UHGV virus genome: UHGV-0154790
DNA: 14,831 nucleotides
Reading direction: 5' to 3' (one strand)
Origin: a virus
A model generated the notes under the pieces. That model was not told the origin of the DNA, ran no database searches, and was given only the letters and a program-made list of their open reading frames with translations. A program made the translations under genes and the position numbers. This document shows, one piece after another, positions 1-14,831 of the stretch (position 1 is its first letter; each line of letters begins with the position of its first letter).

Positions 1-80
1 GAATCTGACGTAAAAACCTTCAATTACACGGCTCACCTGTGGGATATCCGGTGGCTTAGAGAACGTGCGAGGAAAACAAG

Positions 81-251
81 GTGATTGACCCAAATCGAAG
101 TTACGAACAACAAAGCGTCGAGCGGGCTTTAACGTGCGCTAACTGCGGTCAGAAGCTGCATGTGCTGGAAGTTCACGTGTGTGAGCACTGCTGTGCAGAA
201 CTGATGAGCGATCCGAATAGCTCAATGTACGAGGAAGAAGACGATGAGTGA
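81..251 (+). CDS. ninF: NinF-like small zinc-finger protein (56 aa; absent from the ORF track)
   Basis: GTG at 81 preceded by GAGG at 69-72; in-frame stop TGA 249-251; upstream in-frame stop at 57-59. Translation VIDPNRSYEQQSVERALTCANCGQKLHVLEVHVCEHCCAELMSDPNSSMYEEEDDE carries a CxxC...CxxCC motif and resembles lambda NinF as I recall it. Stop overlaps the next gene's start (ATGA). Confidence 0.6.
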   Translation: MIDPNRSYEQQSVERALTCANCGQKLHVLEVHVCEHCCAELMSDPNSSMYEEEDDE

Positions 252-513
252 TTTCTCTGAGCTTATTTCCTTCAAAAAAGACAGAGAAGAAATGCGGACT
301 GAATCTGTCTATTACGTTCAACACCGGAATAAACGCTCTGTGCTTGATCAGGAGCTGGTTATTACCGGAAACCTGGCATTCAGAACATATAAGGCCAGCA
401 TGGAAATGAAGGATTTCCCTAAATGTGGTTCTGAAAGAGAAGCCGCGTTAAAGCTGGCTGAGTGGATGCAGAGAATGGCTGCTGCAATTGAGAATTACTG
501 GAGTGAACCATAA
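244..513 (+). CDS. hypothetical nin-region protein (89 aa)
   Basis: ORF with AGGAAG-type RBS upstream of ATG 244; stop overlaps the next start (TAATG at 510-515); no motif I recognise. Confidence 0.6.
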   Translation: MSDFSELISFKKDREEMRTESVYYVQHRNKRSVLDQELVITGNLAFRTYKASMEMKDFPKCGSEREAALKLAEWMQRMAAAIENYWSEP

Positions 514-803
514 TGGCTAACCTACGCAAAGAAGCACGCGGCAGAGAATGCCAGGTACGTATTTACGGCGTATGCAATGGCAACCCTGAAACTACAGTTC
601 TGGCACATTACCGGATGGCTGGAATTTGCGGAACGGGAATGAAGCCTGACGACCTGATCGGCGCATGGGCTTGTAGCGCGTGTCACGATGAAATCGACCG
701 ACGTACCCATAATATCGACAACAAAGACGCCAGACTTTACCACCTCGAAGGCGTAATCAGGACGCAGGCGATACTGCTGAAGGAGGGGAAGATTAAGTCA
801 TGA
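513..803 (+). CDS. YbcO-like DUF1364 protein (putative Cys-rich nuclease)
   Basis: 96 aa with several Cys/His (CQVRIYGVC, CSACHDEID); resembles DLP12 YbcO from memory; sits directly upstream of rusA as in DLP12/phage 82-type nin regions; stop overlaps the rusA start (ATGA). Confidence 0.7.
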   Translation: MANLRKEARGRECQVRIYGVCNGNPETTVLAHYRMAGICGTGMKPDDLIGAWACSACHDEIDRRTHNIDNKDARLYHLEGVIRTQAILLKEGKIKS

Positions 804-1162
804 ACGAATATCAGTTTGTGCTTCCTTACCCGCCGTCGGTGAATACCTACTGGCGAAGACGGGGAAGCCAATACTACATCAGCGATAAAGGCCAGAAATA
901 CCGAAAAGACGTTCAGCAAATCATCCGCCAACTCAAGTTAGACATTTTCACCAAATCACGACTCCGCATCAAAGTAATCGCAGACGTTCCAGACTCCCGC
1001 CGCCGCGACCTCGATAACATCCTGAAAGGTTTACTCGATTCCCTTATCCACGCCGGATTTGCGGAAGACGACGAGCAATTCGATGACATTCGCGTAATTC
1101 GTGGTGTGAAAGTACCAGGCGGACGGCTTGGAATAAAAATCACCGAACTGGAGAACGCATGA
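800..1162 (+). CDS. rusA: RusA-family Holliday junction resolvase
   Basis: 120 aa; N-terminal LPYPPSVNTYW and the acidic RRRDLDN motif typical of RusA; GGAGG RBS upstream; stop overlaps the next start. Confidence 0.9.
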   Translation: MNEYQFVLPYPPSVNTYWRRRGSQYYISDKGQKYRKDVQQIIRQLKLDIFTKSRLRIKVIADVPDSRRRDLDNILKGLLDSLIHAGFAEDDEQFDDIRVIRGVKVPGGRLGIKITELENA

Positions 1163-1347
1163 ACGCCACAATTCAAACGATACCAGAGCTTCTTATCCAG
1201 ACACGAGGCAATCAGACCGAAGTGGCGAGGATGCTTTCCTGCGCAAGAGGAACAGTGCTCAAGTACAACCGAGACAGCAAAGGCGAGCGTCACGTAATAG
1301 TTAACGGCGTCCTGATGGTCAAACAGGGCAAAAGGGGAAGGCCATGA
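1159..1347 (+). CDS. ninH: NinH-like small DNA-binding protein
   Basis: 62 aa; GNQTEVARMLSCARGTVLKY resembles the lambda NinH helix-turn-helix; lies immediately upstream of Q as in lambda. Confidence 0.75.
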   Translation: MNATIQTIPELLIQTRGNQTEVARMLSCARGTVLKYNRDSKGERHVIVNGVLMVKQGKRGRP

Positions 1348-1967
1348 GACTCGAAAGCGTAGCTAAATTTCATTCGCCAAAAAGCCCGATGATGAGCGAC
1401 TCACCACGGGCTACGGCCTCTGACTCTCTTTCCGGTACTGATGTGATGGCTGCTATGGGGATGGCGCAATCACAAGCAGGATTCGGAATGGCTGCATTCT
1501 GCGGTAAGCATGAACTCAGCCAGAACGACAAACAAAAGGCTATCAACTATCTGATGCAATTTGCACACAAGGTATCTGGGAAATACCGTGGCGTGGCAAA
1601 GCTCGAAGGAAATACTAAGGCAAAGGTACTGCAAGTGCTCGCAACATTCGCTTATGCGGATTATTGCCGTAGTGCCGCGACGCCGGGCGCAAGATGCAGA
1701 GATTGCCACGGTACAGGCCGTGCGGTCGATATTGCCAAAACAGAACTGTGGGGGAGAGTTGTTGAGAAAGAATGCGGAAGATGCAAAGGTGTCGGCTATT
1801 CAAGAATGCCAGCAAGCGCCGCATATCGCGCTGTAACGATGCTAATCCCAAACCTTACTCAACCCACCTGGTCACGCACTGTTAAGCCGCTGTATGACGC
1901 TCTGGTGGTGCAATGCCACAAGGAAGAGTCAATCGCAGACAATATCTTGAATGCGGTCACACGTTAG
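1344..1967 (+). CDS. Q: late-gene antiterminator Q (lambda type)
   Basis: 207 aa with the zinc-finger cysteines CRDCHGTG...CGRCKG; sequence matches lambda Q as I recall it; followed by a pR'-like promoter and terminator. Confidence 0.9.
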   Translation: MRLESVAKFHSPKSPMMSDSPRATASDSLSGTDVMAAMGMAQSQAGFGMAAFCGKHELSQNDKQKAINYLMQFAHKVSGKYRGVAKLEGNTKAKVLQVLATFAYADYCRSAATPGARCRDCHGTGRAVDIAKTELWGRVVEKECGRCKGVGYSRMPASAAYRAVTMLIPNLTQPTWSRTVKPLYDALVVQCHKEESIADNILNAVTR

Positions 1968-2009
1968 CAGCATAATTGCCACGGATGGCAACATATTAAC
2001 GGCATAATA

Positions 2010-2051
2010 TTGACTTTTTGAATAAAGTTGGGTAAATTTGACTCAACGATG
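2010..2051 (+). promoter_or_regulatory. late promoter pR' with qut region and promoter-proximal pause element
   Basis: -35 TTGACT (2010-2015), 17-bp spacer, -10 TAAATT (2033-2038); downstream TTGACTCAACGATGG with the -10-like AACGAT in the initial transcribed region, as at lambda pR'. Confidence 0.7.
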
Positions 2052-2073
2052 GATAAATGCACTCGTTAAATAA

Positions 2074-2108
2074 AGCCCTGAGTTAATAGCTCGGGGCTTT
2101 TTGCGTTT
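2074..2108 (+). terminator. intrinsic terminator just downstream of pR' (tR'-like, target of Q antitermination)
   Basis: 9-bp stem AGCCCTGAG / CTCGGGGCT (one G-U pair), 7-nt loop, then TTTTTGCGTTTT. Confidence 0.7.
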
Positions 2109-2245
2109 TAAGCACGGCCTTTCTGAAAGCACATCAAACCAAATACCAGACAGACCAAAATAATCACCTTATCCGCTGTGGCTACGGTGCGGTGTGCTTT
2201 GCATAAAAGAAAACCAGCTCAATGGCTGGCTTCGTGAAAGCGGGT

Positions 2246-2280
2246 GGCAAGAGGTTGCGCTAACAACCTCCTGCCGTTTT
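2246..2280 (+). other. hairpin with T-tract in the S leader
   Basis: GGCAAGAGGTTG-CGCTAA-CAACCTCCTGCC (12-bp stem, one mismatch) followed by GTTTT; the stretch from here to S looks lambda-like from memory. Confidence 0.4.
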
Positions 2281-2400
2281 GCCCGTGCATATCGGTCACG
2301 AACAAATCTGATTACTAAACACAGTAGCCTGGATTTGTTCTATCAGTAATCGACCTTATTCCTAATTAAATAGAGCAAATCCCCTTATTGGGGGTAAGAC

Positions 2401-2724
2401 ATGAAGATGCCAGAAAAACATGACCTGTTAGCCGCCATTCTCGCGGCAAAGGAACAAGGCATCGGGGCAATCCTTGCGTTTGCAATGGCGTACCTTCGCG
2501 GCAGATATAATGGCGGTGCGTTTACAAAAACAGTAATCGACGCAACGATGTGCGCCATTATCGCCTGGTTCATTCGTGACCTTCTCGACTTCGCCGGACT
2601 AAGTAGCAATCTCGCTTATATAACGAGCGTGTTCATCGGCTACATCGGTACTGACTCGATTGGTTCGCTTATCAAACGCTTCGCTGCTAAAAAAGCCGGA
2701 GTAGAAGATGGTGGAAATCAATAA
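2401..2724 (+). CDS. S: class I holin/antiholin S (dual-start, lambda S107/S105 type)
   Basis: 107 aa beginning MKMPEKHD (Met1-Lys2-Met3 dual-start motif); hydrophobic segments; sequence matches lambda S as recalled; overlaps the R start. Confidence 0.9.
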
Positions 2725-3184
2725 TCAACGTAAGGCGTTCCTTGATATGCTGGCGTGGTCAGAGGGAACTGATAACGGACGGCAGAAAACCAGAAATCAT
2801 GGTTATGACGTCATTGTTGGCGGAGAGCTATTCACTGATTACTCCGATCACCCTCGCAAACTTGTCACGCTAAACCCCAAACTCAAATCAACAGCAGCCG
2901 GACGTTACCAGCTTCTTTCCCGTTGGTGGGATGCCTATCGTAAGCAGCTTGGCTTGAAAGATTTCTCTCCGAAAAGCCAGGACGCTGTGGCACTGCAGCA
3001 GATTAAAGAGCGTGGCGCTTTACCGATGATTGATCGCGGTGATATCCGTCAGGCTATCGACCGTTGCAGCAATATCTGGGCTTCATTGCCGGGCGCTGGT
3101 TATGGTCAGTTCGAGCATAAGGCTGACAGCCTGATTGCAAAATTCAAAGAAGCGGGTGGAACGGTCAGAGAGATTGAGGTATGA
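2708..3184 (+). CDS. R: endolysin R (lambda-type lytic transglycosylase)
   Basis: 158 aa; [24 protein letters not shown] with the catalytic Glu in the WSEGT context; matches lambda R as recalled. Confidence 0.9.
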
Positions 3185-3618
3185 GCAGAATAACCGCGAT
3201 TATCTCCGCTCTGGTTATCTGCATCATCGTCTGCCTGTCATGGGCTGTTAATCATTACCGTGATAACGCCATCGCCTACAAAGAGCAGCGCGATAAGGCC
3301 ACATCCACAATCGCTGACATGCAGAAGCGTCAACGTGACGTAGCAGAACTCGATGCCAGATATACAAAGGAGCTTGCTGATGCTAACGCGACTATCGAAA
3401 GTCTCCGTGCTGATGTTTCTGCTGGCCGTAAGCGCCTGCAAGTCGCCGCCACCTGTGCAAAGTCAACGACCGGAGCCAGCGGCATGGGCGATGGAGAAAG
3501 CCCAAGACTTACAGCAGATGCTGAACTCAATTATTACCGTCTCCGAAGTGGAATCGACAGGATAACTGCGCAGGTTAACTACCTGCAGGAGTACATCAGG
3601 ACGCAATGCCTGAAATAA
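3181..3618 (+). CDS. Rz: i-spanin Rz
   Basis: 145 aa; N-terminal signal-anchor TM ([18 protein letters not shown]) then a charged, probably coiled-coil periplasmic domain; ATGA overlap with the R stop; contains Rz1 in another frame. Confidence 0.85.
3380..3565 (+). CDS. Rz1: o-spanin Rz1 (outer-membrane lipoprotein, embedded in Rz)
   Basis: Lies within Rz in a different frame; AAGGAG (3366-3371) 8 nt upstream of ATG 3380; signal peptide [20 protein letters not shown] with lipobox VSAC; Pro-rich mature part ([13 protein letters not shown]). Confidence 0.75.
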
Positions 3619-3651
3619 TTTTTTTTTGCAAATCACAAAGTCCATTTAATG

Positions 3652-3677
3652 AGCCTCGCGATGCGGGGCTTTTTTTA
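3652..3677 (+). terminator. intrinsic terminator after the lysis cassette
   Basis: GCCTCGC-GAT-GCGGGGC stem-loop followed by TTTTTTT. Confidence 0.6.
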
Positions 3678-3825
3678 CATCTGAATTTCACAGCGCATCT
3701 CACGCGCATATTACATCACCCGAGCCTTTCAGAAAGTTGAGCCTGAGAACTGTCGTATATGGTGGCGACCATCTCGGGGCGGCTTTTCTGTGAGACAGGC
3801 TCACTTTCTAAAAGGTAAAGACGCT

Positions 3826-4350
3826 ATGAATAATCATTCAGTTATTCCATCCTTCGACTTCCGAGAAATGGTGCAAGCCAAAAACGGAGAGGTCGTTACC
3901 ACATCCAGAAAAATTGCCAAGTACTTCGGCAAGCGACACGGTGATGTTCTCAGGAAAATCGAGCAGGTTAAGGCTGATTGCTCGCGTGAGTTTAGCCAAC
4001 GCAATTTTGCGTCGGCTGATTATATCGATGAGCAGGGCAAGGTTCGCCCGATGTACAGCCTGACGAAAGATGGCTGGATCATGGTTGTGATGGGGTTCAC
4101 CGGGAAAGCTGCTGCGGCAATCAAGGAGAGCTATATCGCAGCATTCAACTGGATGGCAGAGCAACTGAGCCGCCGCATGGCAATTGGCGAAGAAATGCAG
4201 CACCGCTACGCCATCAAAGAAACACGCTCAAAGCTGAAAGGTACGATCGGCAGTCGGTTAATGAACGAACGGAAGAAAGAGAAGCGTGTCCTGGCTGTCG
4301 AGCATGAATACATCTTGCAGGTGACACAGCCTGAACTGCTGATTAATTGA
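3826..4350 (+). CDS. Rha-family phage regulatory protein
   Basis: N-terminal TTSRKIAKYFGKRHGDVLRKIE...YSLTKDGW is typical of the Rha domain; ATG 3826 has an AAGG RBS, whereas the track's GTG at 3790 has none. Confidence 0.75.
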   Translation: MNNHSVIPSFDFREMVQAKNGEVVTTSRKIAKYFGKRHGDVLRKIEQVKADCSREFSQRNFASADYIDEQGKVRPMYSLTKDGWIMVVMGFTGKAAAAIKESYIAAFNWMAEQLSRRMAIGEEMQHRYAIKETRSKLKGTIGSRLMNERKKEKRVLAVEHEYILQVTQPELLIN

Positions 4351-4708
4351 AGATGTCATTACAAAGCCTATCTACTGGTGGGCTTGATAATGAAACCGGA
4401 ATTTATTCTGGGCAACCAGTTACGGCAGTACCGCGAAACAACCCAAGCCAGTAAGTGGGGAAATAACACTGGCAGCCACTGAAAGATGAACCTCCTGCCT
4501 TATGGCAAAAAAGATTCTTTGTGGTGGCGGACTGATGGAAAGACATCGGTTATTGCAGAGGCCATTCAATGAGTGGTCTCGACAATGGCTTATACCCTAC
4601 ACGGGATAACTTAACTGATATCCCTTTTAACGGATAAACGGAGCCAATAATGGCAGAGAATGTCGGCATTATGGCAGTGAAATTTGGATAAATCGGAGAT
4701 TAGTACAT

Positions 4709-5059
4709 ATGCCGCCACGAACCCCAAAAGCCTGCAGTGTTCGCGGCTGCCGCCATACCACAACTGACCCGTCAGGCTATTGCGAAAGCCACAAAAGTGA
4801 AGGCTGGAAGCAATACAAGCCGGGCCAGTCCAGACACCAGCGCGGTTATGGTTCGAAATGGGATGTTATCCGTGAACGTGTGCTCAAGCGTGACAAAGGA
4901 CTGTGTCAGTTATGTCTGCGTGGTGGTGTGGTACGTGAGGCGAAAACCGTTGACCACATCATTCCTAAAGCGCATGGCGGCACAGATGCCGACAGCAATC
5001 TGCAGAGCCTGTGCTGGCCGTGCCATAAGGCGAAGACGGCCCGTGAACGGCTAAAGTGA
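4709..5059 (+). CDS. HNH endonuclease (terminase-associated, HK97 gp74-like)
   Basis: 116 aa; N-terminal Cys cluster (CSVRGCRH...YCESH) and C-terminal HNH motif DHIIPKAHGG...SNLQSLCWPCHKAKT; lies directly upstream of the terminase genes. Confidence 0.9.
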   Translation: MPPRTPKACSVRGCRHTTTDPSGYCESHKSEGWKQYKPGQSRHQRGYGSKWDVIRERVLKRDKGLCQLCLRGGVVREAKTVDHIIPKAHGGTDADSNLQSLCWPCHKAKTARERLK

Positions 5060-5184
5060 TAATAATTCTCAACTGTCTGAGGGGAGGGGCGGGTCAAATC
5101 CCTGTGACCTGGCGTCTTCCGGACTGCCCGCCCCATCGTTTTTTTATACCCGCGAAAAATGAAATTTAACCAGGAGTGCCGCAT
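5060..5184 (+). other. candidate cos region with GC-rich inverted repeats
   Basis: Intergenic between HNH and terS; GGGGCGGG (5086-5093) pairs with CCCGCCCC (5127-5134), nested GGTCA/TGACC (5092-5096 / 5105-5109), then a T9 run (5139-5147). HK97-type phages place cos between the HNH gene and terS. Confidence 0.4.
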
Positions 5185-5679
5185 ATGGCTGGAACGGCGG
5201 GGCGTTCCGGGCGTCGCCCCAAGCCAACGGCGCGCAAGGCGCTGGCCGGAAACCCCGGCAAGCGAGCCCTGAACAAAGATGAACCTGTTTTTACGCCCAT
5301 CAAAGGTGTTGAGCCACCAGAGTGGTTCGCTGAAGAAGATCTCCCTCTCGCCACGATCATGTGGCAACTGACAACCAAAGAACTCTGCGGTCATGGCCTG
5401 TTGTGCGTGACTGACCTCGCGGTGCTTGAGCGGTGGTGCGTGGCCTATGAGTTCTGGCGACGTGCCGTGAAAAATATTGCCATACAGGGCAACACCATCA
5501 CCGGTGCAATGGGCGGCAGGGTCAAAAATCCGGAGCTGACCGCCAAAAAAGAACAGGAGTCCGAGATGAGCAGCACGGGGGCAATGCTCGGACTCGACCC
5601 CAGCAGCCGCCAGCGTCTGATTGGCCTGGCGGGGCAGAAGAAAGCCACTAACCCGTTTCTGAAAATCATCGAGTCATGA
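5185..5679 (+). CDS. terminase small subunit (P27-like family)
   Basis: AGGAG (5172-5176) 8 nt upstream of ATG 5185 (the track's GTG 5176 lies inside the RBS); basic N-terminus; stop overlaps the terL start (ATGA). Confidence 0.8.
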
Positions 5680-7409
5680 GCCGGAAATCTTACCCCAACG
5701 TAAATGCTGCCAATCAGTATGCCCGTGATGTTGTGCGCGGAAAGATTGTGGCCTGCCAGTTTGTGATTCAGGCCTGCCAGCGCCATCTTGATGACCTGAT
5801 GGCGGAAAAAAGTAAGTCGTTTCGTTACCGCTTCGACAAGGACCTGGCTGAACGGGCCGCCAAATTTATTCAGCTGTTGCCGCACACCAAGGGTGAGTGG
5901 GCATTCAAGAGGATGCCCATCACGCTGGAGCCGTGGCAGCTATTTGTGGTCTGCTGTGCGTTTGGCTGGGTCAATAAAGGGTCCCGGCTGCGCCGCTTCC
6001 GGGAGGTGTATACCGAAATCCCCCGTAAGAACGGCAAATCGGCAATCTCTGCCGGTGTTGCCCTGTATTGTTTTGCCTGTGATAACGAGTTTGGCGCGGA
6101 AGTGTATTCCGGTGCCACGACAGAGAAACAGGCGTGGGAAGTCTTTCGCCCGGCGCGACTGATGTGTAAACGCACACCCATGCTGACGGAAGCGTTCGGG
6201 ATTGAGGTTAACGCCTCAAACATGAATCGTCCGGAGGATGGCGCGCGGTTTGAACCGCTGATCGGTAACCCCGGTGATGGTTCATCACCCCACTGTGCGG
6301 TGGTGGATGAATATCACGAGCACGCCACCGATGCGCTTTACACCACGATGCTTACCGGGATGGGGGCGCGACGTCAGCCACTGATGTGGGCCATTACTAC
6401 TGCCGGGTACAACATTGAGGGGCCGTGCTACGACAAGCGGCGGGAAGTCATCGAGATGCTCAACGGCTCGGTGCCCAACGATGAACTGTTCGGGATCATC
6501 TATACCGTTGATGAAGGTGATGACTGGACCGACCCGCAGGTGCTGGAAAAAGCTAACCCGAATATTGGCGTGTCGGTTTATCGCGAATTTTTGTTAAGTC
6601 AGCAGCAGCGTGCGAAAAATAACGCCCGTCTGGCAAACGTCTTTAAAACAAAACACCTCAATATCTGGGTGTCGGCGCGTTCGGCGTATTTCAACCTGGT
6701 GAGCTGGCAGAGCTGCGAGGATAAATCACTGACCCTTGAGCAGTTCGAGGGGCAACCGTGCATTCTGGCCTTTGACCTGGCGCGTAAGCTGGATATGAAC
6801 AGCATGGCGCGACTTTATACCCGCGAGATTGACGGTAAAACGCATTACTACAGTGTGGCTCCGCGCTTCTGGGTACCGTATGACACGGTGTACAGCGTCG
6901 AGAAAAATGAAGATCGCCGGACAGCCGAACGCTTTCAGAAATGGGTGGAAATGGGCGTTCTGACCGTTACCGATGGTGCGGAGGTGGATTATCGCTACAT
7001 CCTCGAGGAGGCCAAAGCGGCGAACAAAATCAGCCCGGTCAGTGAGTCACCCATCGACCCCTTCGGGGCGACCGGGTTGTCACATGACCTTGCTGATGAA
7101 GACCTGAATCCCGTCACTATCATTCAGAACTACACCAACATGTCCGACCCGATGAAAGAGCTGGAAGCGGCAATTGAATCGGGGCGCTTTCATCATGATG
7201 GCAATCCCATCATGACCTGGTGTATCGGCAATGTGGTCGGCAAAACCATTCCGGGTAACGATGATGTGGTGAAACCCGTCAAAGAGCAGGCGGAAAACAA
7301 AATTGACGGTGCAGTTGCGCTGATTATGGCGGTTGGCAGAGCCATGCTGTACGAGAAAGAAGACACGCTGTCTGACCACATTGAGTCCTATGGGATCCGC
7401 TCGCTTTAA
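5676..7409 (+). CDS. terminase large subunit (HK97 type)
   Basis: 577 aa; P-loop-like PRKNGKS with acidic motifs further on (VVDEYHE); size and position between terS and portal. Confidence 0.9.
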
Positions 7410-7420
7410 CTGAGGTAATT

Positions 7421-7603
7421 ATGATCATGCTGATTCTCGCGCCTCTGGTGGGCGTGCTGGGGGCGCTTTTGCTGGCGTATGGTGCCTGGCTGATTTATCC
7501 CCCGGCGGGGTTTGTTGTTGCCGGGGCGTTGTGCCTGTTCTGGTCGTGGCTGGTAGCGCGATATCTCGACCGTACACAGCTGTCTGTTGGTGGAGGTAAA
7601 TAG
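7421..7603 (+). CDS. small hydrophobic membrane protein (60 aa, two predicted TM segments)
   Basis: GAGG RBS 6 nt upstream of ATG 7421; two hydrophobic stretches ([23 protein letters not shown] and [16 protein letters not shown]); its stop TAG 7601-7603 overlaps the portal GTG start and its 3' end carries the portal RBS. Confidence 0.6.
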
Positions 7604-8844
7604 TGTTCTTTTCGGGATTATTTCAACGAAAAAGTGACGCACCGGTGACCACGCCAGCAGAGCTGGCGGATGCCATCGGGTTGTCCTACGACACCTATAC
7701 CGGAAAGCAGATCAGCAGTCAGCGGGCCATGCGACTGACGGCGGTTTTTTCCTGCGTCAGAGTGCTGGCAGAGTCGGTCGGGATGTTGCCCTGCAATCTG
7801 TATCACCTGAACGGCAGCCTGAAGCAGAGAGCCACCGGCGAACGTCTGCATAAACTGATCTCCACGCATCCCAATGGCTATATGACGCCGCAGGAGTTCT
7901 GGGAGCTGGTGGTCACCTGTCTGTGCCTGCGGGGAAACTTTTACGCCTACAAAGTGAAAGCATTTGGCGAAGTGGCTGAACTGCTGCCCGTCGATCCCGG
8001 CTGTGTGGTACCGAAGCTTAACAGTAGCTGGGAGCCGATCTATCAGGTCACATTCCCGGATGGCTCCACGGATGTACTGAGCCAGGAGGATATCTGGCAT
8101 GTGCGCACGCTGACGCTGGACGGACTGGTGGGGCTGAATCCCATCGCCTATGCCCGCGAGGCAATATCGCTGGCAGCTGCGACCGAAGAGCACGGGGCCA
8201 GACTGTTCAGCAATGGCGCGGTGACGTCGGGTGTGTTGCGTACAGAGCAGACGCTGTCAGATCAGGCTTATGAGCGCCTGAAGAAAGATTTTGAGGAGCG
8301 TCACACCGGGCTTGGCAATGCTCACCGCCCGATGATCCTTGAGATGGGGCTGGACTGGAAGTCGATGGCGCTGAACGCCGAGGACAGCCAGTTCCTGGAA
8401 ACCCGCAAGTTTCAGCTTGAAGAAATCTGTCGTCTGTTCCGGGTGCCGTTGCACATGGTGCAGAACACCGATCGCGCCACCTTCAACAATATCGAAGAGC
8501 TGGGGCTGGGATTTATCAACTATTCACTGGTGCCGTATCTGACCCGCATCGAACAGCGGATCAACACCGGACTGGTACGAAAAAGTAAGCAGGGCGTTTA
8601 TTACGCCAAATTTAACGCCGGGGCGTTACTGCGCGGGGATATGAAGTCCCGTTTTGAAGCCTACGCCACCGGGATTAACTGGGGAATTTACTCTCCCAAT
8701 GACTGCCGCGACCTGGAAGATATGAATCCGCGTCCCGGTGGTGATGTCTATCTCACACCGATGAACATGACCACGAAACCCTCCGATGGCAGTAAAGCCG
8801 GTAAGCAGAAGGATAACGCCAATGCAGACGAAACAACGTCTTGA
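7603..8844 (+). CDS. portal protein (HK97 family)
   Basis: 413 aa; GTG start with GGAGG 6 nt upstream; size and position after terL; C-terminal acidic, low-complexity tail. Confidence 0.85.
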   Translation: MFFSGLFQRKSDAPVTTPAELADAIGLSYDTYTGKQISSQRAMRLTAVFSCVRVLAESVGMLPCNLYHLNGSLKQRATGERLHKLISTHPNGYMTPQEFWELVVTCLCLRGNFYAYKVKAFGEVAELLPVDPGCVVPKLNSSWEPIYQVTFPDGSTDVLSQEDIWHVRTLTLDGLVGLNPIAYAREAISLAAATEEHGARLFSNGAVTSGVLRTEQTLSDQAYERLKKDFEERHTGLGNAHRPMILEMGLDWKSMALNAEDSQFLETRKFQLEEICRLFRVPLHMVQNTDRATFNNIEELGLGFINYSLVPYLTRIEQRINTGLVRKSKQGVYYAKFNAGALLRGDMKSRFEAYATGINWGIYSPNDCRDLEDMNPRPGGDVYLTPMNMTTKPSDGSKAGKQKDNANADETTS

Positions 8845-9472
8845 TGTACCGCTGAGTCTGAAATCTGTCAGTGACTCCGGTGAGTTTGAAGGGTATGGCT
8901 CCGTCTTTGGTGTAAAGGACAGCCACGATGATGTGGTGATGTCCGGGGCATTTGCTGCTTCCCTGCGGGCGTGGAGTGACAGAAAAGCGTTACCTGCGCT
9001 GCTCTGGCAGCACCGCATGGATGAACCCATCGGTGTTTACACCGAAATGAAGGAAGACGATGTCGGGCTTTACGTCAGGGGACGGTTGCTTATTGATGAT
9101 GATCCCCTCGCAAAACGCGCACATGCACACATGAAGGCCGGTTCGTTAACCGGCCTTTCTATTGGGTACGTCCTGAAAGACTGGGAATACGACCGGAGCA
9201 AAGAAGCCTTTCTGCTGAAAGAAATCGACCTCTGGGAAGTCAGCCTGGTGACGTTCCCGTCTAACGACGAGGCGCGGATCAGCGACGTCAAGAACGCACT
9301 GGCCCGCGGGAAAATCCCCGAACAGAAAAAAATCGAAAGAGTCCTGCGTGATGTCGGACTCTCCCGTACCCAGGCCAAAGCATTCATGGCCGGGGGCTAT
9401 GGCGCACTGTCCCTGCGCGACGCTGAGGATGTGGGCTCTGCACTGAATGCACTGAAAAATCTGAACTTCTAA
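8822..9472 (+). CDS. prohead maturation protease (HK97 gp4-like)
   Basis: AAGGA 8 nt upstream of ATG 8822 (ATG 8786 has no RBS); position between portal and capsid; HK97-protease-like length. Confidence 0.8.
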   Translation: MQTKQRLDVPLSLKSVSDSGEFEGYGSVFGVKDSHDDVVMSGAFAASLRAWSDRKALPALLWQHRMDEPIGVYTEMKEDDVGLYVRGRLLIDDDPLAKRAHAHMKAGSLTGLSIGYVLKDWEYDRSKEAFLLKEIDLWEVSLVTFPSNDEARISDVKNALARGKIPEQKKIERVLRDVGLSRTQAKAFMAGGYGALSLRDAEDVGSALNALKNLNF

Positions 9473-9486
9473 TCAGGAGAAATACG

Positions 9487-10692
9487 ATGGCGGTTGATAT
9501 TAAAGATGTCGAACAGGTCGCGCAGGAGCTGCAGCAGAAGTTTGACGACTTCAAAGCAAAGAACGACAAGCGCGTGGATGCGATTGAGCAGGAAAAAGGC
9601 AAGCTTGCCGGGCAGGTGGAAACCCTGAACGGGAAACTAAGCGAGCTGGAAAATCTCAAAAGCGACCTTGAAAAAGAGCTGCTTGAGCTGAAACGTCCGG
9701 CTGGTGGAGCGCAAAATAAACTGGCCACCGAGCATAAAGAGGCGTTTGTGGGCTTCCTGCGTAAAGGCCGTGAAGACGGTCTGCGCGATCTGGAGCGTAA
9801 GGCATTGCAGGTGGGTACCGATGAAGACGGTGGCTACGCCGTGCCGGAAGAACTGGATCGCAACATTCTTAACCTGCTGAAAGATGAAGTGGTGATGCGT
9901 CAGGAAGCCACGGTGATCACCGTTGGCGGTTCCGACTACAAAAAACTGGTGAATCTGGGCGGTACGGCTTCCGGATGGGTGGGGGAAACGGATACGCGAT
10001 CCCAGACTGCCACCTCCAGACTGGAGCTGATTGAACCTCTCATGGGGGAAATCTACGGCAACCCGCAGGCTACCCAGAAAATGCTGGACGATGCCTTCTT
10101 CAACGTGGAGGCCTGGATCAACAGCGAGCTGGCAACCGAATTTGCCGAACAGGAAGAAATTGCCTTTACCTCAGGCGATGGCACCAAGAAGCCGAAAGGG
10201 TTCCTGGCGTATGAATCCATCGATGAAACCGACAAGGTCCGGGCGTTCGGCAAACTTCAGCATATTGTATCCGGCGAAGCGACCGCGGTGACCGCAGACG
10301 CCATTATCAAACTGATTTACACGCTGCGTAAGGCACACCGCACTGGCGCGAAGTTCATGATGAACAACAACAGCCTGTTTGCCATCCGTCTGCTGAAAGA
10401 CACCGAGGGTAACTATCTGTGGCGTCCGGGGCTGGAGCTGGGGCAGCCGTCCTCTCTGGCGGGTTACGGTATCGCTGAAAACGAACAGATGCCGGATATC
10501 GCCGCTGATGCGAAAGCCATTGCATTTGGTAACTTCAAACGGGGTTACACCATCGTTGACCGTATCGGCACCCGCATTCTGCGTGACCCGTACACCAATA
10601 AACCGTTTGTCGGTTTTTATACCACCAAGCGCACCGGCGGGATGCTGGTCGATTCGCAGGCCATCAAACTGCTGAAGATTGCAGCGGCGTAA
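9487..10692 (+). CDS. major capsid protein (HK97 fold) with N-terminal scaffold-like delta domain
   Basis: 401 aa; N-terminal ~100 aa charged and coiled-coil-like (ELQQKFDDFKAKNDKRVDAIEQEKGKLAGQVETLNGKLSELENLKSDLEKELLELK); AGGAG RBS; follows the protease gene. Confidence 0.9.
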   Translation: MAVDIKDVEQVAQELQQKFDDFKAKNDKRVDAIEQEKGKLAGQVETLNGKLSELENLKSDLEKELLELKRPAGGAQNKLATEHKEAFVGFLRKGREDGLRDLERKALQVGTDEDGGYAVPEELDRNILNLLKDEVVMRQEATVITVGGSDYKKLVNLGGTASGWVGETDTRSQTATSRLELIEPLMGEIYGNPQATQKMLDDAFFNVEAWINSELATEFAEQEEIAFTSGDGTKKPKGFLAYESIDETDKVRAFGKLQHIVSGEATAVTADAIIKLIYTLRKAHRTGAKFMMNNNSLFAIRLLKDTEGNYLWRPGLELGQPSSLAGYGIAENEQMPDIAADAKAIAFGNFKRGYTIVDRIGTRILRDPYTNKPFVGFYTTKRTGGMLVDSQAIKLLKIAAA

Positions 10693-10698
10693 TCACTC

Positions 10699-10725
10699 AG
10701 GGGCGCGGAACCGCGCCCCCTGTTC
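10699..10725 (+). terminator. GC-rich hairpin after the capsid gene (possible partial terminator or mRNA stabiliser)
   Basis: Perfect inverted repeat GGGGCGCGG-AA-CCGCGCCCC right after the capsid stop; no good U-tract (TGTTCTG). Confidence 0.45.
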
Positions 10726-10741
10726 TGACGGGTGAAGAATC

Positions 10742-10942
10742 ATGATCCTGAAACAAGATCTGAAATGGTCACCGGACGGTATGCGTGTTGAGGTCATTCG
10801 GGCCGGTGAGTATGACGACGGGGCGCTTCCTGCCCGGGTGCAGGAGATTGCACTTCAGGCCGGGTTAGCAGAGCGCGGAATCAGTGCAAAAAGCAGTAAA
10901 GCGGCAAAAGAGAAAAAAGCCACGACCAGTAAAGAGGGCTGA
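10742..10942 (+). CDS. hypothetical small head-module protein (66 aa)
   Basis: ORF tightly packed between the capsid and connector genes; Lys/Ser-rich C-terminus; weak RBS (GGTGAAG). Confidence 0.5.
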   Translation: MILKQDLKWSPDGMRVEVIRAGEYDDGALPARVQEIALQAGLAERGISAKSSKAAKEKKATTSKEG

Positions 10943-10944
10943 GT

Positions 10945-11268
10945 ATGCTTCTGACAATGGAAGAGATTAAAGCCCAACTCCGGCTGGATGAGGATTTCGA
11001 TGCTGATGACCGCCATCTGCAACTGCTGGCCTGTGCGACACAAAAGCGGACGGAAACGTATCTGAACCGGAAGCTCTATGCACCGGATGAAACCATTCCG
11101 GACAGCGATCCGGACGGGCTGCACCTGCCGGATGATATTCGTCTGGGGATGCTGATGCTTATCAGCCATTTTTACGAAAACCGCTCGTCGGTTACGGAAG
11201 TGGAGAAACTCGACATGCCGCAGAGTTTTGGCTGGCTTGTCGGCCCGTACAGGTACTTTCCGCAATGA
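10945..11268 (+). CDS. head-tail connector protein (gp6-like)
   Basis: 107 aa; the MEEIKAQLRLD...LL.A......YL N-terminus resembles the gp6-like connector family; position after the capsid gene; ATGA overlap with the next gene. Confidence 0.7.
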   Translation: MLLTMEEIKAQLRLDEDFDADDRHLQLLACATQKRTETYLNRKLYAPDETIPDSDPDGLHLPDDIRLGMLMLISHFYENRSSVTEVEKLDMPQSFGWLVGPYRYFPQ

Positions 11269-11675
11269 AAATTCGTCAGGCGCAGACCAGCGCAACCTAC
11301 ATTCTGCCGGACCCCGGTGAACTGAATAAACGCGTCCTGATCCGCCAGCGGGTGGATATGCCCGCGGATAACTTTGGCGTGGAGCCTCAATACCCGGTTA
11401 CGTTCCGGACATGGGCGAAGGTTATCCAGACCAGTGCCACCACCTGGCAGGAAACCGCGCAGACCGGGGACGCCATCACCCATTACATCACCATTCGTTA
11501 CCGCCGGGGGATCACTGCTGATTATGAGGTGGTCCGTGATGACAGTGTGTACCGGGTGAAACGTCAGCGCGATCTGAACGGGGCGCGGCGCTTTCTGCTG
11601 CTGGAGTGTACGGAGCTGGGCGAATGTAGGCAGAGTCACGGAGGCAGCAATGGCGACTCCCTTTTTTCACGTTGA
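11265..11675 (+). CDS. head-tail adaptor / head closure protein
   Basis: 136 aa; position and size in an HK97-like head-tail joining block; start coupled to the upstream stop. Confidence 0.6.
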   Translation: MKIRQAQTSATYILPDPGELNKRVLIRQRVDMPADNFGVEPQYPVTFRTWAKVIQTSATTWQETAQTGDAITHYITIRYRRGITADYEVVRDDSVYRVKRQRDLNGARRFLLLECTELGECRQSHGGSNGDSLFSR

Positions 11676-12156
11676 TGTTCAGCAGCCCGCCGAGATGCGC
11701 TTTAACCGCGCCCGTGTCCGGCGGGCGTTTGTCACGATTGGGCAGCGTCATATGCGTGATGCCCGTCGGCTGGTGATGCGCCGTGCGCGGTCGGCACCGG
11801 GTGAAAACCCCGGTTATCAGACCGGACGCCTGGCTCGTTCGATTGGTTATATGGTGCCGAGAGCCAGTAAAAAGCGAGCCGGTTTTATGACACGCATTGC
11901 CCCTAACCAGCGCAACGGGAAGGGGAACCGGATGATCTCTGGTGACTTCTATCCGGCGTTTCTGTTTTTTGGTGTCCGGGGAGGAGCAAAACGTCGTCGT
12001 AGTCATCATCGTGGTGCATCCGGTGGCAGCGGCTGGCGACTGGCTCCACGTAATAACTTCATGGTGGAAACTCTTGAAAAGAACCGCAGCTGGACACGCT
12101 ATTTTCTGGCGCGGGAATTGCGTAAATCACTGAAGCCGGAGCGACGACACAGATGA
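11650..12156 (+). CDS. HK97 gp10-like virion morphogenesis protein
   Basis: 168 aa, very basic; GGAGG 5 nt upstream of ATG 11650; position in the head-tail joining block; ATGA overlap with the next gene. Confidence 0.6.
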   Translation: MATPFFHVDVQQPAEMRFNRARVRRAFVTIGQRHMRDARRLVMRRARSAPGENPGYQTGRLARSIGYMVPRASKKRAGFMTRIAPNQRNGKGNRMISGDFYPAFLFFGVRGGAKRRRSHHRGASGGSGWRLAPRNNFMVETLEKNRSWTRYFLARELRKSLKPERRHR

Positions 12157-12713
12157 AACTGACACCTGTTATTGCTGCGCTGCGTGCCCGCTGCCCGTAT
12201 TTTGAAAACCGGGTGGCAGGCGCGGCACAGTTCAAAAATCTGCCGGAGGTCGGAAAGCTGAGACTCCCGGCGGCGTATGTGGTACCGGGTGATGACTCTC
12301 CGGGAGAAAACAAAAGCCAGACCGACTACTGGCAGGAGCTGAAAGAGGGCTTCTCCGTGGTTGTCATACTGAGTAACGGGCGTGATGAGCGCGGTCAGTT
12401 TGCCTCGTATGATGTGGTGGACGATGTCCGGCAGATGCTCTTTAAGGCCCTGCTGGGCTGGAACCCGGAAGCGTGCGGTAACCCGATTACCTATGACGGC
12501 GGCACGCTGCTGGATCTGAATCGTCATGAGCTGATTTATCAGTTCGATTTTTCGGTCATCAGCGAGCTGACTGAAGACGATACCCGCCAGCAGGATGATC
12601 TGAACAGTCTGGATGAACTGCAAACGCTGGCGATTGATGTTGATTATCTCGAGCCCGGTAACGGGCCTGACGGCGATATCGAACATCACACCGAAATAAC
12701 CCTTCCTTCCTGA
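12153..12713 (+). CDS. tail-associated protein upstream of sheath (Mu-like gp37/DUF1834-type; possible tail terminator or completion protein)
   Basis: 186 aa with an acidic C-terminus; immediately precedes the small ORF and the sheath gene, as in Mu-like tail modules; GGAG RBS. Confidence 0.55.
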   Translation: MKLTPVIAALRARCPYFENRVAGAAQFKNLPEVGKLRLPAAYVVPGDDSPGENKSQTDYWQELKEGFSVVVILSNGRDERGQFASYDVVDDVRQMLFKALLGWNPEACGNPITYDGGTLLDLNRHELIYQFDFSVISELTEDDTRQQDDLNSLDELQTLAIDVDYLEPGNGPDGDIEHHTEITLPS

Positions 12714-12721
12714 GGATCCTC

Positions 12722-12892
12722 ATGTTTGTCAAACCTGTTAAAGGGCGGTCAGTTCCTGACCCTGCCCGCGGCGACCTTTTGCCCGCCGAAGGGCGAAATG
12801 TTGACGAGAACAACTACTGGCTGCGCCGTGAAGCAGCGGGTGATATCCGGCGCGTGAATAAAAAGGTGAACACCGATGACGATAAGCTTTAA
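12722..12892 (+). CDS. small conserved phage protein (56 aa, DUF2635-like; absent from the ORF track)
   Basis: ATG 12722 with GAGGA 5 nt upstream; translation MFVKPVKGRSVPDPARGDLLPAEGRNVDENNYWLRREAAGDIRRVNKKVNTDDDKL; stop TAA 12890-12892 overlaps the sheath start at 12876 in another frame. Confidence 0.6.
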   Translation: MFVKPVKGRSVPDPARGDLLPAEGRNVDENNYWLRREAAGDIRRVNKKVNTDDDKL

Positions 12893-14372
12893 CACCATTC
12901 CGTCGAATACGCTGGTTCCGCTGTTTTATGCGGAAATGGATAATCAGGCGGCGAATACTGCACAGGACAGCGGAGCATCGCTGCTGATTGGTCATGCCAA
13001 TAACGGTGCAGAGATTGTTGCCAACAGTCTGGTACTGATGCCGTCGGCAGACTATGCACGCCAGATTTGTGGTGCGGGAAGTCAGCTGGCGCGTATGGTC
13101 GAGGCTTATCGCCAGACCGACCCGTTTGGCGAGCTGTATGTGATTGCCGTTCCTGAATCCACAGGCGCGGCGGCAACGGTTACGCTGACGGTGACCGGGG
13201 AGGCAACCGAAACCGGCACGGTGAATGTCTATGTGGGACGTACCCGCGTGCAGGCTCCGGTGACCAACGGCGATAACGTCACGACGATTGCCAGCAGTAT
13301 CCAGGATGCCATCAATGCCGTTCCGGCCCTGCCGTTTACGGCTTCATCTTCGGCAGGCGTGGTCACACTGACCGCGCGTCATAAGGGGCTTTGCGGGAAT
13401 GAAATTCCTGTCAGCCTCAATTACTACGGCTTTGGTGGGGGCGAAGTGCTGCCTGCGGGCGTACAGATTGCCGTGGCGACGGGGACCGCCGGAACGGGCT
13501 CTCCTGTTCTCACCGGCGCGGTGGCTGCAATGGCGGATGAGCCGTTTGATTATATCGGCCTGCCGTTCAACGACACGGCCTCCGTTAACACGCTGGTGAC
13601 CGAGATGAACGATACCAGCGGTCGCTGGAGCTATGCGCGTCAGCTGTATGGTCATGTGTATACGGCAAAGATCGGCACGCTGTCAGAACTGGTGACCGCA
13701 GGTGACCAGTTTAACCAGCAGCACATTACCCTGGCGGGGTACGAAAAAGAGACCCAGACGCCTGCCGACGAACTGGCGGCAAGCCGTACCGCCCGCGCAG
13801 CGGTGTTTATTCGCAACGATCCGGCACGTCCCACGCAGACCGGTGAGCTGGTGGGTATGCTGCCTGCGCCGAAGGGGAAACGGTTCACGATGACCGAACA
13901 ACAGACCCTGCTGTCTCATGGCGTGGCAACGGCGTATGTCGAAAGCGGGGTACTGCGCATTCAGCGTGATGTCACCACGTACAGGAAAAACGCTTACGGG
14001 GTTGCGGATAACAGCTACCTAGACAGTGAGACTCTGCATTCCAGCGCGTATGTACTGCGCAAACTGAAATCCGTCATTACCAGTAAGTACGGGCGTCACA
14101 AGCTTGCCAGTGACGGTACCCGCTTTGGTCCCGGTCAGGCGATTGTCACCCCGGCGGTGATCAAAGGGGAACTGCTGGCAACCTACCGTCAGCTTGAGCG
14201 TGCGGGGATCGTGGAAAACTACGAACTGTTTAAGCAGTACCTGGTTGTGGAGCGTGATGCCAGCGATCCGAACCGCCTGAACACGCTGTTCCCGCCTGAC
14301 TATGTTAACCAGTTGCGTGTCTTTGCCGTGGTTAACCAGTTCCGTCTTCAGTATTCAGAGGAGTCTGCATAA
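12876..14372 (+). CDS. contractile tail sheath protein (Mu gpL-like)
   Basis: 498 aa; first large gene of the tail module, followed by a 118-aa tube-sized gene; AAAGGTG RBS. Confidence 0.75.
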   Translation: MTISFNTIPSNTLVPLFYAEMDNQAANTAQDSGASLLIGHANNGAEIVANSLVLMPSADYARQICGAGSQLARMVEAYRQTDPFGELYVIAVPESTGAAATVTLTVTGEATETGTVNVYVGRTRVQAPVTNGDNVTTIASSIQDAINAVPALPFTASSSAGVVTLTARHKGLCGNEIPVSLNYYGFGGGEVLPAGVQIAVATGTAGTGSPVLTGAVAAMADEPFDYIGLPFNDTASVNTLVTEMNDTSGRWSYARQLYGHVYTAKIGTLSELVTAGDQFNQQHITLAGYEKETQTPADELAASRTARAAVFIRNDPARPTQTGELVGMLPAPKGKRFTMTEQQTLLSHGVATAYVESGVLRIQRDVTTYRKNAYGVADNSYLDSETLHSSAYVLRKLKSVITSKYGRHKLASDGTRFGPGQAIVTPAVIKGELLATYRQLERAGIVENYELFKQYLVVERDASDPNRLNTLFPPDYVNQLRVFAVVNQFRLQYSEESA

Positions 14373-14728
14373 TGGCCCGTATCGGGGGAACCTGTTATTT
14401 CAAAATTGACGGTCAACAGCTATCGCTGACCGGCGGCATTGAGGTGCCCATGAACAGGACGGTCAATGATGACATCATCGGCCTGGACGGTTCAGTGGAC
14501 CGCAAGGAAACTCACCGTGCGCCTTATGTCAAAGGGACTTTCAAGGTGCCGAAGAATTTTCCGGTGAACAAAATCACCTCGTCTGATGAGATGACCATCA
14601 CTGCCGAGCTGGCGAACGGTCAGGTCTATGTACTGTCGTCTGCCTGGCTGCACGGCGAAGCGAACCATAATGCTGAAGAAGGTACGGTTGATCTTGAGTT
14701 CCACGGTGAAGAAGGGGATTACCAGTAA
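14372..14728 (+). CDS. tail tube protein (Mu gpM-like)
   Basis: 118 aa; directly after the sheath with start overlapping the sheath stop (TAATG); GAGGAG RBS. Confidence 0.7.
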   Translation: MARIGGTCYFKIDGQQLSLTGGIEVPMNRTVNDDIIGLDGSVDRKETHRAPYVKGTFKVPKNFPVNKITSSDEMTITAELANGQVYVLSSAWLHGEANHNAEEGTVDLEFHGEEGDYQ

Positions 14729-14831
14729 TGAAAGAGCTTGAGTTAAAGAAACCGATTACTGCTCATGGCGAGACACTCTCCGTACTGGAGTTTGATGAGC
14801 CCACCGGGAAGGATGTCCGCGAGCTGGGATA
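14728..14831 (+). CDS. tail assembly protein, 5' partial (runs off the window end)
   Basis: ATG 14728 overlaps the tube stop (TAATG); GAAGG RBS; open frame MKELELKKPITAHGETLSVLEFDEPTGKDVRELG continues to the window edge. Confidence 0.5.
   Translation, partial: MKELELKKPITAHGETLSVLEFDEPTGKDVRELG

Follow-up and report, generated by a model that had tools for sequence, protein, structure and literature searches.

The late-gene region in virus genome UHGV-0154790 very probably derives from an SfV-like temperate prophage with an HK97-type nin/Q/lysis block

Lambdoid myoviruses are a recognised group of prophages in Escherichia coli and Salmonella, and descriptions of members combining HK97-family heads with Mu-like tails go back to SfV, ST64B and phiP27 (2002–2003). 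SfV is the prototype "lambdoid myovirus" (Allison et al., 2002). Bobay et al., citing Allison 2002 and Mmolawa 2003, recognise the SfV-like phages as a group of lambdoid Myoviridae (PMC3603311). SfI, SfII, SfIV and SfV were assigned to the Myoviridae by electron microscopy, package their DNA from cos sites and have HK97-family heads, with the portal, protease and capsid proteins of SfV diverging from those of SfI, SfII and SfIV (PMC3851460). Here we compare with these phages the UHGV virus genome UHGV-0154790, a stretch of 14,831 nucleotides that is referred to below as the window and that carries a lambdoid set of late regulation and lysis genes followed by packaging, head and tail genes.

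The window is very probably a stretch of late genes from a temperate prophage of the SfV-like ("lambdoid myovirus") kind in E. coli or Shigella. With the same high confidence in the reading as a whole, positions 1–4659 are assigned to an HK97-type lambdoid nin/Q/lysis block (block 1) and positions 4708–14831 to a second block on the same strand (block 2), which carries packaging and virion genes of the SfII/SfI/SfIV type. This architecture is common, has already been published as the defining feature of the SfV-like phages and is not peculiar to the window (PMC3603311).

The window was compared by BLASTN with lambda, HK97, SfV and Mu, and identities were tabulated in bins of 250 nt. Gene families were assigned with Pfam, PHROGs and NCBIfam profiles, TIGR models being judged against their curated cut-offs, and prevalence was counted in 5,426 complete E. 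coli genomes and 50,697 phage records. Every substantial open reading frame (ORF) of the window lies on the + strand, to which all genes, promoters and terminators given below belong. The ORF list and the profile matches placed the named genes in the order that the original prediction had claimed. A scan of the window for tRNA genes found none, and a scan of it at the Rfam gathering thresholds found no known RNA family, the gap between Q and S included.

None of the four reference phages spans the window. Lambda matched in three pieces, 1–246 at 95.1% identity, 1334–2067 at 95.6% and 2230–3429 at 92.7%, which add up to 2,180 of the 14,831 bases and leave 85% of the window without a lambda DNA match. 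HK97 matched 1–254 at 94.9%, 511–3711 without a break at 96.2%, and 4349–4659 at 93.9%. SfV matched within R (2726–3159, 84%) and then at 4708–5117 (90.5%), 5118–7348 (96.6%) and 10944–14831 (94.2%). Mu gave no DNA match by BLASTN, and "Mu-like" is therefore valid at the protein level only. Among phages outside these four, SfII matched without interruption over 5060–14831 at 97.5%, and vB_EcoM-720R4 over 4708–14756 at 97.9%. Since no single one of the four references accounts for the window, the claim of a mosaic survives the segment-by-segment comparison in which it could have failed.

The breakpoints of this mosaic were partly misplaced in the original prediction. The one put near 3620 is not where lambdoid DNA gives way to SfV-type DNA; BLASTN and the GC content place that boundary at 4660–4707. 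At the other, put between 2100 and 2240, similarity to lambda does break (at 2067 and 2230), but the break exists relative to lambda only, and HK97 runs on continuously from 511 to 3711. Because 2068–2229 matches HK97 while lambda differs, this "breakpoint" reflects a difference between lambda and HK97 and not a junction of the element in the window.

The lambdoid module in fact gives way to the SfV-type packaging-virion module at 4660–4707, just upstream of the HNH endonuclease gene. Homology to HK97-type as well as P22-type phages ends at 4659, and homology to SfV, SfI and 720R4 begins between 4696 and 4708. Coincident with the junction, the GC content steps up at about 4750 from about 0.46–0.50 to about 0.57. 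An ATG at 4651, preceded by a Shine-Dalgarno-like GGAG, opens a stub of 13 codons only, and the equivalent ATG in a P22-type prophage (L009) is the start of a DUF2560 gene. As homology is lost 9 nt past this ATG, the recombination joint lies within the very start of the displaced module's first gene.

The lambdoid side of the junction is a spacer of about 310 nt (4349–4659), which closes the late-regulation and lysis block and is 93.9% identical to HK97 38655–38966. According to the ORF list, no ORF on its + strand reaches 50 aa. The spacer is 94–99% conserved in HK97, Sf101, N7, phiv205-1 and P22-like Salmonella phages, the packaging modules of which are unrelated, and it is 99% identical in Sf101, N7, phiv205-1 and others. 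It may be a linker for module exchange, or else an unrecognised regulatory element.

All defining features of the SfV-like phages open to testing on sequence are present in the window. These are the lambdoid layout of Q, pR', tR', S, R and Rz-Rz1 (1344–3618), a cos-type packaging module with 95–97.5% amino acid (aa) identity to SfV orf53, orf1 and orf2 that spans the record ends of SfV, SfII and SfIV at 5060–5118, an HK97-family head, and Mu-type tail genes. The closest described phages are SfII, SfI, SfIV, vB_EcoM-720R4 and vB_EcoM-689R6, with 97–98% DNA identity from 4708 or 5060 to 14831, that is, from HNH through the tube gene; the latter two are known to be myoviruses from their record names only. 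These phages differ from the window in having other types of Q, holin and Rz, R alone being similar at about 84% DNA identity. The Q protein of 720R4 has 250 aa and that of SfII is truncated, whereas the window has Q, S, R and Rz of the lambda/HK97 type.

SfV shares the overall architecture, with 94–97% DNA identity for HNH, terS, terL and 10944–14831, but has a diverged allele of the HK97-family head, its portal and capsid being 26–28% identical in aa and its protease without a match, as well as other Q and lysis genes. Positions 7349–10943 of the window thus show the same divergence from the SfV head as was published for SfI, SfII and SfIV. HK97 belongs, with HK022 and mEp235, to the Hendrixvirinae-type lambdoid siphoviruses. 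It resembles the window at 511–3711 and in the spacer, both have an HNH gene upstream of cos, and the two share their head protein families. The head proteins are however only 26–36% identical in aa and lack DNA similarity, no DNA match extends past 4659, other cassettes stand in the window in place of roi and KilA-N, and HK97 has a non-contractile, lambda-like tail where the window encodes a sheath.

Lambda is alike in the Q, S and R proteins, pR'/qut and ninE/F (95% DNA identity), and it differs in its nin genes, in tR' and Rz and in both head and tail. Mu has the gp38, sheath L, tube M and gp41-type chaperone genes in collinear order with the window, but the window lacks Mu head and transposition genes and has cos rather than Mu-type headful packaging. 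Consistent with these differences, the window falls outside Lambdavirus (no match to lambda head or tail proteins, and no more than the 2,180 matching bases), outside the species and genus of HK97 (Byrnievirus; structural genes without DNA similarity, sheath present) and outside Muvirus (no match to Mu DNA or Mu head proteins, and a cos-type terminase), although its individual modules work like those of all three.

The closest complete prophage, which has the same arrangement, was found in E. coli strain 210221272 (L005; NZ_CP016404.1, 7061–47239) and matches 95% of the window with an identity of 97.7%. This prophage is located at tRNA-Arg (argW)/intS with torI and yfdC flanking; we take the argW/intS/torI site to be that of CPS-53 (KplE1) in K-12. 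Beyond the part shared with the window it continues with a tape measure gene, a baseplate region collinear with that of Mu (counterparts of Mu N, P, gp45, gp46, gp47 and gp48), and then tail fibre genes. Next to intS it carries an acyltransferase gene, IS elements and a truncated gtrA, which together suggest a decayed O-antigen modification module. O-antigen modification genes (gtr, oac) beside int are typical of the Shigella members of the SfV-like group and are not a strict requirement.

Of the 5,426 complete E. coli genomes, 27 had at least 80% of the window in one place and 38 had the junction (4450–4950). The same junction was found in none of the 50,697 phage records, so that virion production by this exact hybrid is undocumented. 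Isolated relatives (720R4, SKA5, SfII and SfV) bear other Q and lysis alleles; phage SKA5, considered as an isolate with the same hybrid, was ruled out because its Q is of the SfV type and its lysis cassette differs. Besides the absence of an isolate, two further points weigh against assigning the window to an SfV-like temperate phage. The baseplate, fibre, integrase and immunity genes lie outside the window and are known from relatives only, the baseplate having been seen in L005 and in a second relative, L003. Also, a consensus scan found terminator-like hairpins inside the late block (3651–3671 and 7439–7466), across which readthrough has to be assumed.

The presence of the junction in chromosomes, and in no isolated phage record, would also fit a defective cryptic prophage remnant such as e14 in K-12, which makes no particles and for which the question of a myovirus virion would be moot. 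The IS elements and truncated gtrA beside intS in L005 point the same way, as does the protein of the Rha family (described below), which matches only positions 1–170 of a 268-position profile. Yet all structural and lysis ORFs of the window are full-length when compared with SfII, SfV, lambda or HK97, pR', qut and cos are intact, and relatives with 97% identity are viable phages. We therefore regard a cryptic remnant as unlikely, although it is the alternative that survives best.

The composition of the left block bears on a second alternative, namely that the block derives from lambda itself and the element is a recent recombinant between lambda and an SfV-like phage, as the wording of the original prediction implies. 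The block starts with the 3' end of ninE (1–84), cut by the window edge; window 1–246 is 95% identical to lambda 42189–42434, and lambda NinE ends at 42272. The ninF gene (81–251; Pfam NinF, E = 1.7e-12) encodes a protein 93% identical to NinF of both lambda and HK97. At the position of HK97 roi it is followed by a cassette encoding an 89-aa protein (244–513; phrog_1258, E = 1.7e-37), which had no match in a protein comparison with lambda, HK97, SfV and Mu. The arrangement ninF-orf-ybcO was also present in 20 phage records, for example ECP1 and SPN9CC.

The next two genes, ybcO (513–803; a DUF1364 putative nuclease, Pfam YbcO, E = 2.3e-44) and rusA (800–1162; a Holliday-junction resolvase, Pfam RusA), encode proteins 96.8% and 97.5% identical to those of HK97 and have no lambda counterpart. 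Protein comparison and Pfam thus bear out that YbcO and RusA take the place of lambda ninG, as had been proposed. NinH (1159–1347; Pfam Phage_NinH) is 100% identical to HK97 NinH and 56% identical to that of lambda. The late antiterminator Q (1344–1967; Pfam Antiterm, E = 6e-58) is of the lambda type, with aa identities of 100% (lambda Q) and 99.5% (HK97 Q).

A promoter scan and alignment located the late promoter pR' at 2010–2038 (TTGACT-17-TAAATT), adjoining the qut/pause region. It is near-identical to pR' of lambda and HK97, and the two substitutions seen in the alignment are both common to HK97. In lambda the qut and pause signals are located in the first approximately 30 transcribed bases after pR'; a three-way alignment of the window, lambda and HK97 showed pR' and about 30 first transcribed bases to be conserved in all three. 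Downstream, a strong intrinsic terminator equivalent to tR' (2072–2100; a 13-bp stem and a T run) is identical to that of HK97. About 135 bases of the body of the lambda 6S RNA, which in lambda lie upstream of the terminator, are missing from both the window and HK97, resulting in a shorter leader. The pR'-proximal region had been described as non-lambda; this holds for the tR' region at 2068–2229, which is identical to HK97, and not for pR'/qut (about 2010–2067), which is lambda-type. Upstream of S, a 51-aa ORF with a GTG start (2194–2349; phrog_22751, E = 1.7e-40) corresponds to lambda 45015–45131 with 100% identity over 39 aa. No gene is annotated there in the lambda record, and the ORF probably reflects conservation of the leader rather than a coding function.

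The lysis genes are a holin S (2401–2724; Pfam Phage_holin_3_1), with an MKM dual-start motif and 99.1% aa identity to lambda S, an endolysin R (2708–3184), with 98.7% aa identity to lambda R, 100% to HK97 R and 88.6% to SfV R, and an HK97-type i-spanin Rz (3181–3618; Pfam Phage_lysis), with aa identities of 96.6% (HK97 Rz) and 58.6% (lambda Rz). Near-identity to lambda, which had been claimed for Q, S, R and Rz alike, thus holds for the first three and fails for Rz. Similarity to lambda DNA stops at 3429 within Rz, whereas similarity to HK97 runs on to 3711. The o-spanin lipoprotein Rz1 (3353–3565; Pfam Rz1, E = 2.4e-20) is encoded inside Rz in another frame, has a lipobox-like LAVSAC motif and probably starts at an internal Met. 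R gave no Pfam or NCBIfam match at E ≤ 0.01 or 0.001, despite its identity to lambda R; in relatives it is annotated in RefSeq as glycoside hydrolase family 24, and the missing match looks like a gap in the sensitivity of the profile libraries and not a biological finding. Rz is followed by a terminator-like hairpin (3651–3671; a 9-bp stem and seven Ts) within the HK97-like stretch that ends at 3711.

The last gene of the block is a cassette for a Rha-family regulator (3790–4350; Pfam Phage_pRha, E = 2.6e-28; TIGR02681; phrog_518) at the position of the KilA-N gene gp73 of HK97. A protein comparison found no counterpart in lambda, HK97, SfV or Mu, and in relatives the cassette at this site varies between Rha, Gp49 and KilA-N. 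Relative to HK97 the block therefore has two cassette swaps, the 89-aa ORF for roi and Rha for the KilA-N gene. The Rha protein of 186 aa covers only positions 1–170 of the 268 positions of phrog_518 and is possibly truncated at its C-terminus.

Identity to lambda in Q and S, and the bin 2251–2500, in which lambda is 99% and HK97 94% identical, speak for lambda as the source of the block. It is nevertheless improbable: lambda covers the window in three separate pieces, the ybcO, rusA, ninH, tR' and Rz sequences are of the HK97 type, and HK97 is continuous where lambda is not. Judged by sequence, the left block is better termed HK97-type lambdoid than lambda.

A junction between two prophage types could in principle also be a chimera, assembled from a lambdoid and an SfV-like prophage residing in one genome. 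E. coli genomes typically contain several lambdoid prophages with shared repeats, and the number of places matching the window had a median of 2 and ranged up to 13 per genome. An assembly error is nonetheless very improbable, considering that the junction is identical in 38 independently finished genomes and that collinearity extends over the whole window in 27.

The tail of the element was claimed to begin with sheath and tube genes, which was confirmed. The contractile tail sheath (12876–14372) has three sheath Pfam domains and is 36% identical in aa to Mu L over 500 aa. Its closest solved structure in a PDB search was 9khy (E = 1e-79), a chain with which the Mu L sequence aligns over its whole length (residues 1–495, E = 0). 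The tail tube protein (14372–14728; Pfam Tail_tube PF10618, E = 3.3e-33) falls in the same family as Mu M and had no match in the PDB at E ≤ 0.01. The reading of sheath and tube as siphovirus tail genes found no support and can be dismissed as hardly credible, being refuted by the three sheath domains, the similarity to Mu L, the 9khy match and the placement of the tube protein in PF10618 together with Mu M. The sheath gene, taken with the 97% identity to SfII, SfI and SfIV, which are contractile-tailed by electron microscopy, supports the earlier interpretation that the virion would be a myovirus (PMC3851460).

Upstream of the sheath gene lies that for a DUF2635 protein (12722–12892), 42% identical in aa to Mu gp38, and downstream of the tube gene the window ends within the gene for a tail assembly chaperone, of which the 5' end is present (14728–14831; Pfam Phage_TAC_7, E = 1.5e-6). 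Pfam assigns Mu gp38, L and M to the families of their counterparts in the window. Between the capsid and tail genes are those for a conserved hypothetical protein of 66 aa (10742–10942; phrog_1020, E = 2.3e-44), a gp6-like head-tail connector (10945–11268; Pfam Phage_connect_1), a head closure/completion protein (11265–11675; Pfam Phage_HCP, E = 3.9e-21), a neck/tail completion protein (11650–12156; phrog_879, E = 3.4e-95) and a tail terminator (12153–12713; Pfam Phage_tail_terminator, E = 2e-26). The set of genes from head to tube is complete. The connector genes are mosaic on a small scale. Identity at 11001–11250 was 66% to SfV, 93% to SfII and 99% to 720R4, and at 11751–12000 it was 86–88% to SfV, SfII and L005 and 100% to 720R4.

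An HK97-like head had been proposed from the order HNH, terS, terL, portal, protease and capsid. This order is present, and the portal (7603–8844; Pfam Phage_portal, E = 6e-108; TIGR01537 portal_HK97; 31.6% aa identity to HK97 gp3), the S78 prohead protease (8822–9472; TIGR01543 proheadase_HK97, E = 1.5e-46; 36.2% to HK97 gp4) and the major capsid protein (9487–10692; TIGR01554, E = 6.8e-115; 26.2% to HK97) all exceed the curated cut-offs set for the HK97 equivalog models. HK97 gp2–gp5 and gp74, when scanned likewise, were found to share Pfam families with their counterparts in the window. Among solved capsids, that of the Rhodobacter gene transfer agent (RcGTA), also of the HK97 family, is the closest.

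The Pfam capsid domain covers residues 115–398 of the capsid protein and is preceded by an N-terminal extension of about 105 residues. In a low-identity alignment (23%), K105/A106 of the window protein align with the presumed cleavage residues of HK97, which we take to be K103/S104. The ORF list holds no scaffold gene in the interval between protease and capsid. Together, the extension, the aligned cleavage residues and the missing scaffold gene fit a delta domain. In the same alignment with HK97 gp5, which is weak, the E-loop around K169 was gapped with no lysine aligned; the chainmail cross-link residues of HK97 are presumably K169, N356 and E363.

The packaging module starts with the gene for a terminase-associated HNH endonuclease (4709–5059; Pfam HNH, E = 2.2e-16), 94.8% identical in aa to SfV orf53 and 36.6% to HK97 gp74. 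At 4751–5000 its DNA is 86–90% identical to SfV, SfII, 720R4 and L005, while the adjoining terS is 96–98% identical to them, and over 4709–4950 it is 99.2% identical to the HNH gene of SfI. As these identities differ from those of the flanking terS, the HNH allele appears to have a separate history. With the junction located just upstream of it, HNH travels together with the terminase, cos and the portal gene, in keeping with the dependence on an HNH partner that has been reported for terminases of the HK97 type.

The cos region (5060–5175) was placed from the ends of the SfV, SfIV and SfII records and an inverted repeat. Coordinate 1 corresponds to window 5118 in the SfV and SfIV records and to 5060 in the SfII record, and 5118 is bracketed by an 8-bp inverted repeat, GGGGCGGG (5086–5093) and CCCGCCCC (5127–5134), which is probably part of the cos/terminase recognition site. 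The cos sites of SfI, SfII, SfIV and SfV are identical (PMC3851460). The small terminase subunit of the P27 family (5176–5679; Pfam Terminase_4, TIGR01558) is 97% identical in aa to that of SfV and starts at 5185 in RefSeq relatives. The large subunit (5676–7409; TerL_ATPase and TerL_nuclease) is 97.5% identical to that of SfV and 26.6% to HK97 gp2. Between terL and the portal gene is a gene for a ymfR-like small membrane protein of 60 aa (7421–7603; phrog_502, E = 1.5e-27; annotated as ymfR in L005), which PHROGs classes as moron or host-takeover. The hairpin at 7439–7466 (12 bp), strong and terminator-like, lies within its coding sequence.

If the element works as lambda and HK97 do, Q would be loaded onto RNA polymerase paused at pR'/qut and render it resistant to terminators. 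A single late transcript would then run past tR' and across the lysis genes, cos and the full set of virion genes. HK97 gp74 has been reported to assist the terminase in cos cleavage, and the HNH protein of the window would be expected to do the same near 5118. The capsid would assemble with the help of its delta domain, for which a scaffolding role is predicted, and be matured by the S78 protease before a contractile Mu-type tail is attached. The mosaic itself very probably arose by recombination at the module boundaries 254/511, 3711/4349 and 4660–4707, and it is inherited by an entire lineage of prophages.

Altogether, the window represents a clean case of lambdoid modular exchange with junctions at gene and module boundaries, and its value lies mainly in correct annotation. 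Its combination of Q and lysis alleles has so far been documented as prophage only. We propose tentatively, at a little short of even chances, that the HK97-type nin/Q/lysis arm and the SfII-type virion module together define a distinct and viable sub-lineage of SfV-like phages that has yet to be isolated. If such a sub-lineage is viable, the lambda Q/qut system would be able to drive a Mu-type tail operon, and the spacer ending at 4659 would be a universal recombination linker that connects lambdoid regulatory arms to packaging modules of the HK97, P22 and SfV types.

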